Shown here: positions 10,360 to 39,430 of the stretch, piece by piece
Numbering within the stretch: position 1 is the stretch's first letter
How the letters are laid out: each line of letters opens with the position of its first letter
Translations under genes and position numbers: made by a program
Origin: Minisyncoccota bacterium
GTDB taxonomy: Bacteria; Patescibacteriota; Minisyncoccia; Phycocordibacterales; CAJQIN01
DNA: 64,000 bases
NCBI GenBank assembly: GCA_905478465.1
Contig: CAJQIN010000012.1
Coordinates: 32,890-96,889 of the forward strand
Reading direction: 5' to 3'
The notes under the pieces: generated by a model
What the model was told of the DNA's origin: nothing
The model's database searches: none
Seen by the model: the letters and a program-made list of their open reading frames with translations, nothing else

Positions 10360-10602
10360 TTATTTTTCCGCTTCAAGTATTTTTTTCTTTTTTTCAAACC
10401 CACGATTATAGCCACCCGTTTTTCCGTCAGAACGAACTACTCTGTGGCACGGTATACCTTGATCGTAATTTGTATGCAAGATATTTCCCACAGCACGATA
10501 TGCCATTGGGCTTCCAGCTTTCTGAGCAACTTCTTTGTATGTTAAGGTTACTCCTGAAGGAATTTTCTTCACCACAGCGAAAACTTTTTCTTTAAAAATC
10601 AT
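10360..10602 (-). CDS. ogt: Methylated-DNA--protein-cysteine methyltransferase, single-domain (about 81 aa)
   Basis: PCHRVV active-site motif plus an HTH region (TYKEVAQKAGSPMAYRAVGNILHTNYDQGIPCHRVVRSDG). I chose the start at MIFKEKVF, where the ATG is at 10600-10602 on the minus strand. Confidence 0.8.
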   Translation of the reverse strand: MIFKEKVFAVVKKIPSGVTLTYKEVAQKAGSPMAYRAVGNILHTNYDQGIPCHRVVRSDGKTGGYNRGFEKKKKILEAEK

Positions 10603-10662
10603 ACATAAAATTATAACAAAAAAACTAGTGGAATATATTTGAAACATTCCACTAGGTACTCA

Positions 10663-10833
10663 TTACTTATTTGCATTTTCCTTTCCCTTCTTTGTGTTGT
10701 AAAATTTTTTCTGTGCACTGCGAACTTCCTTGAGATACGTACTATATTCGCAGGGATTCTTTTTTGCCTGTGCTGCCACAGCAGCATAGACATCGAGAGT
10801 ATCATCCCGACCATCAATACATAAAAGTGTCAT
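10663..10833 (-). CDS. Small hypothetical protein (56 aa) with a strong Shine-Dalgarno sequence
   Basis: AAGGAGGTG lies 7 nt upstream of the ATG (MTLLCIDGRDDTLDVYAAVAAQAKKNPCEYSTYLKEVRSAQKKFYNTKKGKENANK). No family recognised. Confidence 0.45.
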   Translation of the reverse strand: MTLLCIDGRDDTLDVYAAVAAQAKKNPCEYSTYLKEVRSAQKKFYNTKKGKENANK

Positions 10834-10938
10834 AATACACCTCCTTGGTATTCGGACCCTCTTTAAAGCTAAAAAATACAAGAAACACTCTTATATCTTT
10901 ATTTTCTAATTATATTATACACCCTAAAGAACAAAATG

Positions 10939-11790
10939 TCAAGCATCTGAATGAACACAAATTAGTTTCACCTCCTCCAGTACCTTGGTCTTTTTTTGTA
11001 CAGATAGACCCAAAACATCCAGAACTTCTGGATTATTCTTAACATGTTTTAATAACACCACCCCTCTCTCTAAGAGCAAATTCTTTTCCGCTTTTGAAAG
11101 TGTTGTTAATGTAGTTAAAGGATGCAAATCTGCTTCAGTAATAAAATCATGTAAGTTACCCTTCTTTGGATAATCCCAACCAATAATTTGTAATTGCTGA
11201 CAGGCAGCATACTGTTTCGCACTCTGTGTGAACTTGGTATTAGTAATAAGCCATCCATCTGTCATTTTTCTTTCTTGTTTGTCTATAACAATAGCGACAT
11301 CTCTCAAATCATCGAAACGAGATTTTATATACAAAGCAACTTTAGTATCTGTTTTTGTTCCATGATTATTATGAAATTTTGCTTCTATAAGGTGCACTTC
11401 AGCATCATTATATGCCAAGACATCTATCTCATGACTAATACAATGTCCTTGGATAACACGCCCTATCTGAACCTTATAACCTTTCTGAATAAAAATCTCA
11501 CCAATAAACTTTTCAAAAGGAAAACCTGAAGGACCCAAATCCATCACGGCACGACGAAGAGAATATAATCCAGCAACAGGTTTAGTATTTCCTTTTTTAA
11601 GAAGAGTAAAAGCTTGCTGGTATATCCGCCTTGTCGTCATCCCATCTTGTAATCCTTTTTCTATCTCAGTAAGAATGGATTTTATAAGCAAAGGTTGTGC
11701 ACCGGCACGACGAAGAGATCTGATAAGTTTTGAAGAATCAAAAGGTTCTTTTTGACCATTCGCTTTTGTAATAATAATTTGTTGACTCAT
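10939..11790 (-). CDS. ATP-cone domain fused to a Mrr-like restriction endonuclease (PD-(D/E)xK) domain
   Basis: N-terminal ATP-cone (IIITKANGQKEPFDSSKLIRSLRRAG ... AGLYSLRRA), as in NrdR and RNR regulatory domains. The C-terminal half carries a D...E.K nuclease signature (HEIDVLAY ... VHLIEAKF). Confidence 0.65.
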   Translation of the reverse strand: MSQQIIITKANGQKEPFDSSKLIRSLRRAGAQPLLIKSILTEIEKGLQDGMTTRRIYQQAFTLLKKGNTKPVAGLYSLRRAVMDLGPSGFPFEKFIGEIFIQKGYKVQIGRVIQGHCISHEIDVLAYNDAEVHLIEAKFHNNHGTKTDTKVALYIKSRFDDLRDVAIVIDKQERKMTDGWLITNTKFTQSAKQYAACQQLQIIGWDYPKKGNLHDFITEADLHPLTTLTTLSKAEKNLLLERGVVLLKHVKNNPEVLDVLGLSVQKKTKVLEEVKLICVHSDA

Positions 11791-11805: not shown

Positions 11806-12882
11806 TCACTCTATAATACCACCTCCCAAACAAACATCACCACTATAGACCACTAGAGACTGTCCTCGCACAGGAATATCACAAGATTTGCTAAATTTAA
11901 CACTCCACACATCATCCTTGCATAACAAATTTGCTTTAGATACTTTCTGTCTATAACGCATTTGTATACCATATTCTTTCTGAGACACCGGTTTCTCCCC
12001 TACCCAATTCACTTCACGAAGTGTGTGTGAGTTAAGGGTAGATGTTTTTGCCGGTTTCCTAGAAACCATTAATGTATTTTTTACGACATCTTTTGAAATG
12101 ATGTAATAAGGCTCATCATTAACTTTTTTTTCTGTAATAGTAAAATTATGACGTTGTCCGATTGTATACGAGACAGCCCCGTTGTGTTTACCTACGGGCT
12201 CTCCAGATTCATTTAATACCACACCTGCACTAGGATGCAGATAGTGTTTTAAAAATTCTTCCATATTAATATCTTCAAGAAAACATACACCCTGACTATC
12301 TTTTTTTAGAGCTGTTACAAGATTATATTTCTTAGCCAATTTTCGTACTCTTTTTTTCTCCAAAGAACCCAAAGGAAAAAGTGTCTTGGCAAGGTGTTTC
12401 TGCGTCAATGTCCATAAAAAATAACTCTGATCCTTGTTTGTATCTTTTCCGCGCAACAATTCATACTTAGTATTTTTTTTGGCACGTACCTGAGCATAAT
12501 GTCCTGTCGCTATGTAATTTGCACCATCTTCTATTGCCCAATCAAAAAAACCACCGAACTTTATATACTTGTTACACATAATATCAGGATTGGGAGTTTC
12601 TCCTTTTTGGTATTCAGCTAGTAGATAATCTACTACTTCTTTTTTGTACTCCTTAGACAAATCCAGTGTCTTAAAAGGAATATGAAGCTGTGCACATATT
12701 CTCATTGCATCCCTTCTACTCTCCTTCCAAGAACACCTAACCCATTCTGGATACCAACCTTTTATATAGACACCCACAACTTCAAAACCTTGAGACTGCA
12801 GTAATGCTGCGGTTACCGAACTATCAACTCCTCCAGAGAGCCCTACGTACACCTTTTTTCTTTTTTTATATTTCCAAAACAT
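11806..12882 (-). CDS. mnmA: tRNA-specific 2-thiouridylase
   Basis: PP-loop motif (VYVGLSGGVDSSV) plus the conserved MnmA catalytic region (GETPNPDIMCNKYIKFG ... YIATGHYA). Confidence 0.88.
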   Translation of the reverse strand: MFWKYKKRKKVYVGLSGGVDSSVTAALLQSQGFEVVGVYIKGWYPEWVRCSWKESRRDAMRICAQLHIPFKTLDLSKEYKKEVVDYLLAEYQKGETPNPDIMCNKYIKFGGFFDWAIEDGANYIATGHYAQVRAKKNTKYELLRGKDTNKDQSYFLWTLTQKHLAKTLFPLGSLEKKRVRKLAKKYNLVTALKKDSQGVCFLEDINMEEFLKHYLHPSAGVVLNESGEPVGKHNGAVSYTIGQRHNFTITEKKVNDEPYYIISKDVVKNTLMVSRKPAKTSTLNSHTLREVNWVGEKPVSQKEYGIQMRYRQKVSKANLLCKDDVWSVKFSKSCDIPVRGQSLVVYSGDVCLGGGIIE

Positions 12883-33544: not shown

Positions 33545-33585
33545 TTCCTAACCTTCAAAGAGAAGTGTTAGGAATTTTTTAATAT
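33545..33585. terminator. Hairpin terminator AATTCCTAAC-N14-GTTAGGAATT followed by TTTT. It is shared by the convergent small gene and the 3' end of uvrA.
   Basis: Read directly from the sequence. Confidence 0.5.
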
Positions 33586-36156
33586 TTTCTTCAAATACTT
33601 TCCGGTATGTGACCCCTTCACCATTGCCACCTGCTCAGGTGTTCCTTTGGCAACAATACTTCCTCCGCCGATTCCACCCTCCGGACCTATATCAATGACA
33701 TAGTCTGAACTTTTTATGACATCCATATTATGTTCAATAACTACCACGGTATTACCTTTATTAACAAGCTGCTGCAAGATTTCAATTAATTTCTTCACAT
33801 CCTCATAATGCAAACCAATAGTTGGTTCGTCTAACAGATACACTGTTTTCTGTGTGTGTTGTCTATACAATTCTGAAGAAACTTTGACGCGCTGAGCTTC
33901 TCCCCCCGAAAGAGTCGTAGCAGATTGTCCTAGTGTAAGATACCCTAGACCTACCTCATTTAAAGTTCGTAGCCTATCTGCAATAGCAGGAATGTCTTCA
34001 AAAAAACTATAAGCCTCTTCAACTGTCATCGAAAGAACATCATAAATACTCTTATCTTTATACTTCACATCAAGAGTTTCTTTCATAAAACGTTTTCCAT
34101 TACAAACATCACAAGGAACATAAACTGTTGGTAAAAAATGCATTTCAACAGCAATTTGACCATTTCCCTGACATGCCTCACATCGACCACCTTTTACATT
34201 AAAAGAAAATCTTTTCGGTTTCCATCCACGAGATTTTGCTTCTAAAGTCTCAGCAAACAAATCCCGGATAAAAGTAAAAGCTCCTGTATAGGTAGCTGGG
34301 TTTGATCTAGGAGTTCTACCTATCGGAGATTGATTAATTAGGATAGTTCGACCCACATACTCTGTACCAGAAAAAGAAGTACAGTTATAGATATCATTAG
34401 ATCGATACCTTCTATCAAAACGCGCTTGCATATTCTTATGCAAAATTTCATACATAAATGAAGATTTCCCTGATCCTGAAACACCAGTAACTGTAATTAG
34501 TCTTCCCAGAGGAAGATCAACATTCATGTTTTTAATATTAAAAACATTACCACCTTTAATAGATATTTTTCCTTGCGGAGCATTCCTTCTTTCTTTCGGT
34601 ATTTCAATTTTCTCTACCCCGGTTAAATACTGTAACGTTAGGGATTTTTTAACACTCTTAGAATCATCAATCAAAGTATCCAAATAATCAGCAACTATAA
34701 CACTTCCTCCACGAATACCTGCACCCGGTCCAATATCAATCATATAGTCTGATGCAAAAATAGTATCCTCATCATGTTCCACAACAAGAATTGTATTACC
34801 CATGTCACGTAGATTAAGAAGAGTTTGAATCAATCGGTCATTGTCCCTAGAATGCAAACCAATAGTTGGTTCGTCTAATACGTAGAGTGCTCCCACAAGA
34901 CCCGAACCAAGCTGAGACGCCAACCGAATACGCTGTGCCTCGCCCCCAGAGAGAGTATGTGCTCGTCTATCAAGTGTTAGATAGTCTATACCAACATCTA
35001 ACATAAATTTTAATCTATTTGAAATTTCTTTGGTAATAACTTTTGAAATCTCTTTCTGTGTATCAGTAAGCTCTAAGTGCTCAAAAAAACTATACGCCTC
35101 TAGAATAGACATACCTGTAACATTTACGATATTTTTCTTCTGACCACTCTTGTCAGTTACAAAAATATACAAAGCCTCACTCCGCAAACGCGCACCTTCA
35201 CACACAGTACATATTTCATCCCCAAAAAGATGCTTCGTTCCAAGACCATTACATTCAGCACAAGCTCCATATGGAGAGTTGAATGAAAAAAGACGTGGTT
35301 CAATTTCAGGAAAAGAGAAGCCGTCATAAGGACACATAAACTTTGACGAAATAACTTTTTCTCCTTGAGGTGTTACTAATTTAATCAAACCTTCTGACTC
35401 ATCAAGAGTTCTCTCAACAGCTTCACCGAGACGTTCCTTGGTATCTTCACTTATCTTTTTGAGATCTGTTACATAAAACTCATCTACTAGCACATCGATA
35501 TTATGTCGTTTATTTTTTGACAAAACAATTTTGTCTTGCAAGTCATAACGTTTTCCATCAATAGCTACAAACTTATACCCCTTTCCAAGTAAATCATATA
35601 ATAGCTGATAGTATTCCCCTTTTCGTCCGACAACAACAGGTGCATAAAGTTGAACCTTTAAGTCACTCACCGATACCCCTAACACTTCTTTGACTCCAGA
35701 TATTTTAATAGACGTAATCGTTTTAACAATTACACCTAAAATTTCTTCTTTAGAAAGTTTTTTTATTTCACGTCCACACTCAAGACAATGAGGAGCACCA
35801 ATACGAGCAAACAAAATACGAAGGTAATCATATATCTCTGTAATGGTTGCCACTGTTGAACGAGGATTATTAGAACGTGATTTTTGGTCAATAGAAATAG
35901 CCGGAGAAAGTCCTTGTATTTCATCCACATCAGGCTTTTGCATTTGATTTAAAAACTGTCGCGCATACGAAGACAGAGATTCTACATACCTACGCTGTCC
36001 TTCGGCAAAAATAGTATCAAAAGCGAGTGAAGATTTTCCTGAACCCGACAAACCAGTAAAAACCACCATCTTATTACGAGGCATTTTAACTGTTATATTT
36101 TTTAAGTTATGAGTACGTGCACCTTTAACTACAAGAAAATCTTCTCCTTTTTTCAT
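33568..36156 (-). CDS. uvrA: Excinuclease ABC subunit A
   Basis: 862 aa. [10 protein letters not shown] ... [37 protein letters not shown]. Two ABC ATPase modules and zinc-finger Cys clusters. Confidence 0.93.
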
Positions 36157-37402: not shown

Positions 37403-39430
37403 TCATCTTTTTTTAGATTCCTCTTCTTCAATCTTTTTTATCTCATCTCTTATAATAGCAGCTGTTTCAAAATCTAAAATTTTAACAGCCTCAGACATCT
37501 GCTTTCTCTTAACCTGAAGTAACTTCTTCATGTTTCCTTTATAAGCCTCTTTTTCAATAGTATATATCTCTTCTACAGCTTTCGTATGTTCGGACTTCAT
37601 TTGCTCTGTAATATCTTTAATGTTTTTATGAATCGTTGTGGGAGTAATATTATGCTTTTTATTGTACTCCAGCTGTATATTTCTTCTTCGATCTGTCTCA
37701 GCAATAGATCTCTCAATTGAACCAGTAATAACATCGGCGTATAGAATAACTCGACCTTCAACATTTCTAGCCGCACGACCAATAGTTTGCACAAGAGCTG
37801 TTTCTGAACGCAAAAATCCCTCTTTATCAGCATCAAGAATACCAATAAAAGAAACTTCTGGTAAATCAAGGCCTTCTCGAAGCAAGTTTACCCCAACCAA
37901 ACAATCAAATTCACCCTTACGAAAAGCAGTGAGTATTTCAATACGTTCAATGGTATGAATTTCACTATGTAAATATTTTGTTTTTACACCTTTCTCAAGA
38001 AGATAATCAGATAGATCCTCCGCCATTTTTTTTGTTAAGGTGGTGGCAATAACACGTCCCCCTTTTTTAATTGCCTTTTCAGCCTCTTTAATAAAATGTG
38101 TTACCTGCCCAGGATGTGCACCTTTTTCTGTTACTGGCACAATATCTACCTGAGGGTCAATGAGACCTGTTGGACGAATTACTTGTTCGGCAACAACAGA
38201 ACTCTTATCCTTTTCATATTTTCCCGGGGTTGCTGTTGTGTATAAAACTGAACCTACTCGATCTTCAAATTCATCAAATGTTAATGGCCTATTATCTTTA
38301 GCACTAGGCAGTCTAAAACCATGCTCAACAAGATTTTGTTTTCTAGAAGCATCTCCAGCAAACATCCCTCCTATTTGTGGCACAGCAACGTGTGATTCGT
38401 CTATGATGGTAAGAAAATCAGGACGACCATCTGCAGTATGCGGAAAATAAGACAAAAGTGTATCGGGGGCTTCACCTGTTTTCTTACCGGAAAAGTGCCT
38501 TGAGTAATTTTCAATTCCATTACAATATCCAACTTCCCTAATCAAAGCCAAGTCATATCTAGTACGTCTTTTGAGACGTTCTGCTTCAAGTATTTTTCCA
38601 GATTTTTCAAATTCTTTTAATCGTTGCTCCAATTCTTTCGTAATAGTACCTAATGCTCTTTTCTGCTGTTCTTTATTTGTCACAAAATGCTTTGCAGGAA
38701 AAACAAATACAACATCAAGTTTCTCCTGAATCATGCGTGTAATAGGGTCTATTTTTGTAATACTACAAATAACATCTTGGTCAATCTCTATCGCAAAAAT
38801 ATATCTTTCATGTGCAGGCATTATTTCTATAGTATTTCCAATAACACGAAACAAACTTGGCGTTAAATCCGCATTTGTTCTTTCATAATGCAGACCTACC
38901 AAAGTATCAATGATATTTTTTCGAGAACTCTTTGCCCCTTTTTCAATTTTAAAATTAACTTTCTCATACTCTTTCGGAGAACCCAATCCATAAATACATG
39001 AGACTGAGGCAACAATAATAACATCCTTCCTTGTCAACAAAGATTGGGTGGAGGCGTGTCGTAACCGATCAATTTCCTTATTAATCTGAGCCTCTTTCTC
39101 TATGTACGTGTCACTTCCTGGCAAATATGCCTCAGGTTGATAGTAATCATAATAAGAAACAAAGTAATGAACAGCATTATTCGGAAAAAATTCTTTATAC
39201 TCCTGAGCAAGCTGAGCAGCTAATGTTTTATTATGCGCAATAACTAACGTAGGTTTATTTACTTCAGTAATGACATTTGCAGCCGTAAATGTCTTTCCGG
39301 ATCCTGTAACCCCTAACAATGTCTGATGTCCATTACCTTTCTTGATACTTGTAATAAGCTTTTTAATAGCAGCAGGCTGATCTCCAGATGGTTTAAAATC
39401 ACTTTTTAACTGAAATATTTTTTTAGACAT
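37403..39430 (-). CDS. uvrB: Excinuclease ABC subunit B
   Basis: 675 aa. GDQPAAIKKL ... LLGVTGSGKTF helicase motifs and a C-terminal UvrB/UvrC interaction helix. Confidence 0.93.
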   Translation of the reverse strand: MSKKIFQLKSDFKPSGDQPAAIKKLITSIKKGNGHQTLLGVTGSGKTFTAANVITEVNKPTLVIAHNKTLAAQLAQEYKEFFPNNAVHYFVSYYDYYQPEAYLPGSDTYIEKEAQINKEIDRLRHASTQSLLTRKDVIIVASVSCIYGLGSPKEYEKVNFKIEKGAKSSRKNIIDTLVGLHYERTNADLTPSLFRVIGNTIEIMPAHERYIFAIEIDQDVICSITKIDPITRMIQEKLDVVFVFPAKHFVTNKEQQKRALGTITKELEQRLKEFEKSGKILEAERLKRRTRYDLALIREVGYCNGIENYSRHFSGKKTGEAPDTLLSYFPHTADGRPDFLTIIDESHVAVPQIGGMFAGDASRKQNLVEHGFRLPSAKDNRPLTFDEFEDRVGSVLYTTATPGKYEKDKSSVVAEQVIRPTGLIDPQVDIVPVTEKGAHPGQVTHFIKEAEKAIKKGGRVIATTLTKKMAEDLSDYLLEKGVKTKYLHSEIHTIERIEILTAFRKGEFDCLVGVNLLREGLDLPEVSFIGILDADKEGFLRSETALVQTIGRAARNVEGRVILYADVITGSIERSIAETDRRRNIQLEYNKKHNITPTTIHKNIKDITEQMKSEHTKAVEEIYTIEKEAYKGNMKKLLQVKRKQMSEAVKILDFETAAIIRDEIKKIEEEESKKR

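Follow-up and report, generated by a model that had tools for sequence, protein, structure and literature searches.

Introduction

Experiments have established ATP-cones as allosteric switches of ribonucleotide reductases (RNRs) and of the repressor NrdR, and they thereby act on the supply of deoxynucleoside triphosphates (dNTPs); on a nuclease this sensor is, to our knowledge, so far uncharacterised. Here we describe a gene that encodes an ATP-cone fused to a PD-(D/E)xK nuclease and that is located in a stretch of 64,000 nucleotides from a Minisyncoccota bacterium (Patescibacteriota; GenBank assembly GCA_905478465.1, contig CAJQIN010000012.1, positions 32,890 to 96,889). This whole stretch is called the window in the following, and positions are counted from its first nucleotide.

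The closest solved counterpart of the nuclease part is AF1548 from Archaeoglobus fulgidus (PDB 1Y88), for which D38, E51 and K53 have been predicted as catalytic residues (PMC1821046; PMC1874628). The window protein shares with AF1548 the nuclease core, this triad, the C-terminal helical domain and the residues C117, H140 and C197 (numbered as in the window protein), whereas AF1548 is a chain of 199 residues without an ATP-cone. The best-matching ATP-cone is that of NrdR, and the motif VxKxxGxxExFxxxKL is common to both proteins. By analogy, the nucleotide-dependent oligomerisation that controls the nucleic acid-binding output of NrdR might also operate in the nuclease. In contrast to NrdR, however, the window protein has no N-terminal Zn-ribbon (there is no Cys4 motif and the cone starts at residue 6), its output would be a nuclease instead of a repressor, and an arginine or lysine at position 79 takes the place of Tyr131.

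In the CARF nucleases Can2, Card1/VC1899 and Cdn1, an N-terminal small-molecule sensor is likewise joined to a Mrr-like PD-(D/E)xK nuclease and, by analogy, the ATP-cone nuclease probably works like these ligand-gated enzymes. It differs from them in that it lacks a CARF domain, similarity being confined to the nuclease domain, in that the expected ligand is ATP or dATP and not a cyclic oligoadenylate, and in its housekeeping type of genomic setting without an association with type III CRISPR systems. The Mrr and Type IV restriction enzymes, such as MspJI and AspBHI, belong to the same catalytic-domain family (Pfam Mrr_cat), but the nuclease family studied here has neither a modified-DNA reader nor a defence context nor a patchy distribution. 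A last point of comparison is the AMP (pentose-bisphosphate) pathway in archaea and in CPR (the candidate phyla radiation), of which AMP phosphorylase and phosphoribosyl pyrophosphate (PRPP) synthetase are components (PMC5113843); the AMP phosphorylase of Thermococcus kodakarensis phosphorolyses all four nucleoside monophosphates (NMPs) (PMC8376864). Outside Patescibacteria, the nuclease shares an operon with an AMP-phosphorylase-like enzyme and a PRPP synthetase. However, in the literature searched neither a nuclease nor an ATP-cone protein was found described as a member of that pathway, the examined loci showed no ribose-1,5-bisphosphate (R15P) isomerase or RuBisCO, and Patescibacteria loci lack the partner genes.

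Results and Discussion

An ATP-cone joined to a Mrr-type nuclease core and a helical module

The gene is a complete open reading frame (ORF) that starts with ATG (Table 1). A preliminary description, made from the letters of this DNA alone, had given exactly the coordinates, minus strand and length of 283 amino acids (aa) that we recovered, and the motifs which it quoted are all legible in the DNA, namely IIITKANGQKEPFDSSKLIRSLRRAG (residues 5-30), YSLRRA (76-81), HEIDVLAY (120-127) and VHLIEAKF (132-139). It had proposed an N-terminal ATP-cone followed by a Mrr-type PD-(D/E)xK nuclease, and both proposals were borne out. Pfam searches returned ATP-cone (PF03477, residues 6-80) with 31.4 bits against a gathering cut-off of 25.8 and Mrr_cat (PF04471, residues 89-202) with 32.2 bits against a cut-off of 21, so that both scores lie above the curated cut-offs, while no NCBIfam model matched the window protein. 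Residue conservation was studied in 44 close homologues and then in an alignment of 208 sequences, which combines 150 representatives of 50%-identity clusters with plasmid and metagenome members, and the D/E/K catalytic residues are retained in all members aligned. The ATP-cone/nuclease fusion is real and well above chance and, judged by its retained residues, the nuclease to which the ATP-cone is joined is a catalytically intact Mrr-type PD-(D/E)xK enzyme. What the preliminary description had overlooked is a third module (residues ~205-283) that is homologous to the C-terminal helical domain of AF1548.

An AlphaFold2 model of the window protein, calculated with the 44 homologues as input, had a pLDDT of 89 and a pTM of 0.71. 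In this model the ATP-cone consists of an N-terminal beta-hairpin (strands 6-8 and 14-16) and a four-helix bundle (helices 19-28, 33-45, 53-66 and 72-83), and Foldseek superposed it on chains of E. coli NrdR (9fxk, 9fvr and 9gex) with a root-mean-square deviation of 1.8-2.3 Å over 71-77 columns. When the family profile was aligned to the ATP-cone of E. coli NrdR with hhalign, a probability of 93.7% was obtained and residues K9, E15, F17, K21, R28 and T53 of the window protein were equivalent to K53, E59, F61, K65, R72 and S105 of NrdR, among which K53, K65, R72 and S105 are inner-site residues (10.1101/2025.03.28.645925). The conserved positions of the cone are K9, G12, E15, F17, K21, R28, T53 and Y76; K9, G12, F17 and K21 are invariant in the 44 close homologues, and in the larger alignment 97-98% of the sequences retain K9 (197/200), G12 (196/200) and K21 (193/199). 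The top matches of the N-terminal profile among PDB sequences were designed helical-repeat proteins, which we discounted as a low-complexity artefact.

The nuclease core is preceded by a linker that runs into the first catalytic helix, and G86, P87, G89, F90, P91, F92 and E93 of this segment are invariant in the 44 sequences, as are D123, E136 and K138. Conservation is equally strict in the 208-sequence alignment, where G89 was found in 206/206, F92 and E93 in 207/207 and each of D123, E136, K138, R158, D161 and N184 in 208/208 sequences. A phmmer search matched residues 96-277 of the window protein to residues 24-195 of 1Y88 (E=6e-27), with D123, E136 and K138 equivalent to D38, E51 and K53 of AF1548, and Foldseek aligned the part after the ATP-cone to the same structure with E=4e-14 and a TM-score of 0.75 on the target. 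The next-closest solved nuclease domains in Foldseek were those of the ligand-gated CARF nucleases Cdn1, Can2 and Card1/VC1899. Such conservation patterns indicate that the residues of the predicted nucleotide site and those of the catalytic site are both under strong purifying selection. A further observation concerns C117, H140 and C197 (at ~11440-11442, 11371-11373 and 11200-11202), which are shared with AF1548 in the phmmer alignment and conserved in 190, 190 and 189 of the 208 sequences (91%); they are candidates for a structural metal site or a redox site within the nuclease domain.

In the C-terminal module four helices were modelled with pLDDT values above 90. The corresponding Pfam family AF1548-like_C (PF22357) was detected in homologues, for example in P0014 at E=8e-11, and gave no match at E<=1 in the window protein itself. 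By inspection the module resembles a helix-hairpin-helix, with an LGLS hairpin at residues 259-262, and it is a probable nucleic acid-binding module.

Table 1. Position of the ATP-cone nuclease gene, its parts and other features of the window.
Feature	Position	Strand	Basis or remark
ATP-cone + Mrr_cat nuclease + AF1548-like C-terminal module, complete ORF, 283 aa	10939..11790	-	ORF list, Pfam, phmmer, AlphaFold2
ATP-cone, residues 6-80	11551..11775	-	PF03477, hhalign, Foldseek, conservation
LGPSGFPFE, linker plus first catalytic helix, residues 85-93 with E93 as the last	11512..11538	-	near-invariant in alignments
Mrr_cat PD-(D/E)xK core, residues 89-202	11185..11526	-	PF04471, AF1548 equivalence, conservation
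Predicted catalytic residues D123, E136, K138	11422-11424, 11383-11385, 11377-11379	-	alignment to AF1548
AF1548-like C-terminal helical domain, residues ~222-277	10960..11127	-	1y88 alignment, AlphaFold2
MnmA (tRNA 2-thiouridylase), upstream operon partner	11806..12882	-	Pfam; stop codon 15 nt before nuclease start
Downstream variable slot: small ORF and single-domain MGMT	10360..10881	-	Pfam, ORF list
MGMT DNA_binding_1 domain, 95 aa	10360..10647	-	Pfam E=1.8e-27
Small ORF, 56 aa, ATG at 10833	10663..10833	-	DNA inspection; strong AAGGAGGTG Shine-Dalgarno sequence
Sigma-70 consensus TTGACA-17-TATAAT, 12/12 match, overlapping the nuclease stop codon	10914..10942	-	consensus match only
UvrA	33568-36156	-	scores against PADLOC mad3 (1.9e-90), mad8, AriA
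UvrB	37403-39430	-	scores against PADLOC PbeA, mREase_IV, DinG
LeuRS with NUDIX insertion, 968 aa	16221-19127	-	PF00293 at residues 404-519, E=3e-14
ORF, 977 aa	19174-22107	-	no Pfam or PADLOC match
ORF, 977 aa	44479-47412	-	no Pfam or PADLOC match
Protein of 426 aa	4273-5553	-	no Pfam match
Protein of 381 aa	5573-6718	-	no Pfam match

The fusion is the common form of a large family

Searches with the full protein retrieved 4,521 sequences at 90% clustering, and the best 120 of them were all 274-314 aa long, with a Pfam match to ATP-cone and/or Mrr_cat in 111 cases. When the nuclease module alone was used, 895 clusters at 50% identity were obtained (667 with E<=1e-10), and about 140 of the best 150 clusters possess an N-terminal extension of 80-95 aa; among the aligned members, 199/208 have the ATP-cone. 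Judged from these sequence sets, most AF1548-like nucleases carry the ATP-cone fusion, and AF1548 itself belongs to a cone-less minority. The gene is present in at least 595 GTDB species representatives, nearly all of them Patescibacteria/Paceibacteria. The architecture is already catalogued in Pfam and NCBI, and the window protein is one ordinary member of a very large family, whose members are named 'ATP cone domain-containing protein' or 'restriction endonuclease' (NCBI) and, in one source, 'Holliday junction resolvase'.

An operon with probable enzymes of RNA and nucleotide breakdown outside Patescibacteria

On plasmids of Pontibacter actiniarum and Criblamydia sequanensis, homologues with 44% and 41.5% identity to the window protein, respectively, are the first genes of a co-directional block that continues with a metallo-beta-lactamase (MBL)-fold hydrolase, a 'thymidine phosphorylase family protein' and a ribose-phosphate pyrophosphokinase. 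The block proteins are 49-60% identical between the two plasmids. A metagenome scan revealed five additional loci in which this block recurs between different flanks, which brings the total to seven loci from at least five genomic backgrounds (two plasmids and five metagenome loci) in Bacteroidota, Chlamydiota and marine metagenomes. Distances between the genes, measured from longest-ORF starts, range from -50 to +21 nt, and most are below 12 nt or are overlaps.

The MBL partner, with its Lactamase_B, Beta-Casp and RMMBL domains, is of the RNA-specific type and matches the Thermus RNase TTHA0252 with E=1e-71; such beta-CASP proteins as RNase J and CPSF-73 act as 5'-3' exonucleases. The phosphorylase partner, which carries an N-terminal extension of ~100 aa, matched PDB entries 4GA5 and 4GA4 at ~1e-102 (346 bits and E=3e-102 for 4GA5), whereas genuine pyrimidine-nucleoside phosphorylases reached at most 140 bits. 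In their order, the encoded endonuclease, beta-CASP ribonuclease, NMP phosphorylase and PRPP synthetase look like a module for nucleic acid catabolism or salvage. Patescibacteria offer a loose parallel, since the next gene there often encodes a PDDEXK_1 nuclease or a deoxynucleoside monophosphate (dNMP) nucleotidase. In one of the loci (L095), a gene of 435 aa upstream of the operon was considered as a RuBisCO and proved to encode an APC-family amino acid transporter.

A housekeeping position in Patescibacteria

The window has a GC content of 36% and contains housekeeping genes that are almost all located on the minus strand, encoding ribosomal proteins, RpoA, IF-1, alanyl-tRNA synthetase (AlaRS), PepF, the O6-alkylguanine methyltransferase MGMT, the nuclease, MnmA, YceG, a DUF8128 protein, a sigma factor, leucyl-tRNA synthetase (LeuRS), UvrA, UvrB and TGT. 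Synteny was studied in 79 fetched loci in which the nuclease gene had been called, and the order DUF8128-YceG-MnmA-nuclease is found in most Patescibacteria loci examined. MnmA is encoded directly upstream on the same strand in 51 of the 72 loci with enough flank, at a median distance of 15 nt, and within three genes in 12 more; AlaRS follows within six genes downstream in 38/55 loci. Mean pairwise identities amounted to 0.54 for the nuclease, 0.55 for MnmA, 0.57 for AlaRS, 0.43 for YceG and 0.44 for DUF8128, and the divergence of the nuclease correlated with that of MnmA, YceG and DUF8128 (r=0.70-0.79) and of AlaRS (r=0.45), with a Mantel p=0.001 for all of them. In our view, Patescibacteria (Paceibacteria) inherit this gene vertically as part of their housekeeping set, which sets it apart from mobile defence genes.

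In other Patescibacteria lineages the gene lies directly after GltX or between DnaA and a PilB-type ATPase. The latter arrangement, with a PilB/T2SSE-type ATPase, was seen in a low-GC lineage (L133, L135-L137, L140, L141 and L145) and is a single lineage-level observation; such dnaA-adjacent copies may lie close to the replication origin, which would be of interest for a dATP/ATP sensor.

On its other side, the nuclease gene of Patescibacteria loci is separated from PepF/AlaRS by a variable slot, which is occupied by uracil-DNA glycosylase (UDG) in 36 loci, a PDDEXK_1 nuclease in 20, an MgtC-like protein in 15, a YfbR-like (HD) 5'-deoxynucleotidase in 13, and MGMT in the window and in about 10 loci. 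Two of the neighbours that the preliminary description had mentioned in this slot were found again, namely the single-domain O6-alkylguanine methyltransferase with its 95-aa MGMT domain and a small ORF of 56 aa behind a strong Shine-Dalgarno sequence. This small ORF has no family or Pfam match and was seen only in the three contigs with the identical nuclease protein (L001-L003) and in none of the more distant loci. A perfect sigma-70 consensus at the nuclease stop codon suggests that a transcript of their own is made for the small ORF and MGMT.

An MgtC-family protein is encoded at position +1 in about 15 Patescibacteria loci (for example L012:9590-10075), and a P-type cation ATPase (Cation_ATPase_N/C, MgtA/B-like) occurs beside or near the nuclease in at least nine non-Patescibacteria loci (L084, L085, L087, L088, L092, L093, L094, L106 and L114). 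Both may point to a link with Mg2+/ATP homeostasis, which lies outside the explanation proposed below.

A possible adenine nucleotide-gated endonuclease

Our preferred explanation, which we hold tentatively and at slightly less than an even chance, is that of an adenine nucleotide-gated endonuclease that gates or starts nucleic acid turnover or salvage in response to the adenylate and dNTP status of the cell. The protein would be located in the cytoplasm and would be an active PD-(D/E)xK endonuclease like AF1548 in type, in which the helical module at the C-terminus binds nucleic acid, and its N-terminal NrdR-like ATP-cone would sense adenine (deoxy)nucleotides and control cleavage. As suggested by the characterised ATP-cones of RNRs and NrdR, binding of ATP or dATP would shift the oligomeric state and thereby switch cleavage on or off, since the nuclease domains would be brought into, or released from, an arrangement that is competent for cleavage. 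Such a regulated first endonucleolytic step would feed exonucleases and (d)NMP-processing enzymes; in Bacteroidota and Chlamydiota the recipients would be the beta-CASP RNase, the AMP phosphorylase and the PRPP synthetase, in Patescibacteria a PDDEXK_1 nuclease or a YfbR-like 5'-deoxynucleotidase. The proposal starts from what was observed on architecture, distribution, synteny and operon partners and from the finding that active- and ligand-site residues are intact, and from these we infer nucleotide binding, a direction of regulation, RNA or DNA as substrate and a role in salvage. The preliminary description had suggested gating by the (d)NTP pool, and of this the gating of the nuclease by adenine (deoxy)nucleotides stands as reasonable, given the intact ligand-site and catalytic residues, with the binding of such nucleotides itself being predicted.

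Several points weigh against this explanation. Among PDB sequences, the N-terminal domain profile found true ATP-cones only weakly (E=0.04-0.17) and, because of these weak matches, the ATP-cone call rests on the Pfam gathering score, the hhalign alignment and the fold match. Discrimination between ATP and dATP may differ from that of NrdR, or be absent, because the outer-site gatekeeper Tyr131 of NrdR is aligned by hhalign with Arg/Lys79 in the nuclease family. The beta-CASP, AMP-phosphorylase and PRPP-synthetase partners are absent from 80 Patescibacteria loci and from the window, so that the operon evidence is carried over from proteins that are only 41-44% identical. Entries 4GA4-6, which we take to be the AMP phosphorylase of T. 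kodakarensis, bear the name 'putative thymidine phosphorylase' in the PDB. Synteny that is kept within one lineage could reflect ancestry instead of function, and UDG, the commonest slot neighbour in Patescibacteria, points together with MGMT to DNA repair as much as to salvage. In the literature on ATP-cone nucleases and AF1548/1Y88, we found only PD-(D/E)xK predictions for AF1548 and no functional study.

A broader generalisation appears rather doubtful to us, although it is worth stating. ATP-cone nucleases as a class would be adenylate/dATP-gated endonucleases that act as a regulated entry valve of nucleic acid recycling. Their products would, in Bacteroidota and Chlamydiota, enter a route of beta-CASP RNase, AMP phosphorylase and PRPP synthetase leading from RNA to ribose-1,5-bisphosphate and bases, and the nucleases would belong to the core of nucleotide economy in Patescibacteria, for which a dependence on scavenged nucleotides is generally reported. 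If gating occurs, sensing of the nucleotide pool would control nucleic acid breakdown in addition to the dNTP synthesis governed by RNR and NrdR. For Patescibacteria it would offer a testable handle on the balance of scavenging, repair and replication in reduced genomes, the structural-genomics orphan AF1548/1Y88 would obtain a function, and the AMP/pentose-bisphosphate pathway possibly an additional upstream step. The family is deeply conserved, joins a predicted nucleotide sensor to a nuclease and shows a suggestive connection with NMP catabolism, and since one of its hosts can be cultivated for genetic work, it is a tractable and worthwhile target.

Alternative functions

The main rival to a role in turnover or salvage is an endonuclease of DNA repair or recombination, such as an enzyme that would nick or resolve DNA with damage or branches, with an ATP-cone that would tune cutting to the dATP/ATP ratio so that it takes place only when dNTPs allow repair synthesis. 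The variable slot in Patescibacteria is dominated by repair genes (UDG, PDDEXK_1 nuclease and MGMT), UvrA and UvrB are encoded in the same window, the gene lies beside DnaA in one lineage, the C-terminal module appears helix-hairpin-helix-like as in many repair proteins, and one source names a homologue 'Holliday junction resolvase'. However, no junction-resolvase family model was matched in the Pfam search, the slot is variable and in the window apparently has its own promoter, and the partners in the cross-phylum operon, that is an RNA-type beta-CASP protein with RMMBL, an NMP phosphorylase and a PRPP synthetase, are not repair genes. We therefore regard a repair nuclease as unlikely, if still deserving serious attention.

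The preliminary description had favoured a stand-alone anti-phage or surveillance nuclease, which would be triggered by an infection-induced change of the ATP or dNTP pool, and this idea did not hold up well. A ligand sensor joined to a nuclease is typical of abortive-infection effectors, the nuclease domain is like those of Can2, Card1 and Cdn1, and two copies are plasmid-borne. PADLOC, one of the checks proposed for a defence role, gave only weak nuclease-domain similarity for the window protein (CARF_PDDEXK at E=2.5e-4 and REase_II at 0.023), and no PADLOC system was matched by the window protein, by its non-Patescibacteria homologues or by their operon partners. No homologue was found in 50,697 phage genomes or among IMG/VR viral contigs, and plasmid copies amounted to only 2/72,556, both in metabolic operons. 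The neighbourhood, also proposed as a check, consists of MnmA-linked synteny in Patescibacteria and of a nucleotide-catabolism operon elsewhere, not of a defence island, and the gene behaves like a core gene, with conservation at the level of MnmA and AlaRS and co-divergence with its neighbours. The absence of CRISPR and restriction-modification systems from the window, which had been noted beforehand, was confirmed, as no CRISPR-like array was found there and no defence genes lie nearby. Since the gene lacks every feature that is usual for mobile defence genes, we consider a defence role improbable, and the case calls for caution against naming every sensor-plus-nuclease fusion a defence gene.

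PADLOC matches elsewhere in the window (mad3 at 1.9e-90, mad8, AriA, PbeA and mREase_IV) were considered as a defence system and turned out to be UvrA and UvrB. Through such false positives, the scores of these two proteins against PADLOC models can mislead the annotation of defence genes in reduced genomes.

That the protein is a non-catalytic, NrdR-like regulator, in which a dead nuclease fold and the helical domain bind DNA, is very improbable. DNA binding by inactive restriction endonuclease folds is known, NrdR has the most similar ATP-cone and there is a weak, below-cut-off match to NA-iREase1 (E=0.0028), but the 100% conservation of E93, D123, E136 and K138 in 207-208 diverse sequences argues for catalysis. 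A Mrr-like Type IV modification-dependent restriction endonuclease is hardly credible, in spite of the Mrr_cat match, the name 'restriction endonuclease' of NCBI homologues and the Foldseek likeness to the catalytic domains of MspJI and AspBHI, as the N-terminus is an ATP-cone, Pfam showed no winged-helix or SRA-type domain, the PADLOC mREase_IV model did not match the window protein, there is no restriction-modification context and the gene is vertically conserved in streamlined genomes.

Other features of the window

In the LeuRS gene of the window, a NUDIX domain (PF00293) is inserted in frame behind the editing domain; the LeuRS proteins of relatives are 807-854 aa long, and one relative has a separate NUDIX gene just upstream. 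Two further ORFs, located in different parts of the window, share a length of 977 aa (Table 1). Between IF-1 and AlaRS, the proteins of 426 and 381 aa are encoded next to each other, and genes of like size and position, also without matches, are present in L004 and L005, so that they look like a conserved pair in Paceibacteria.

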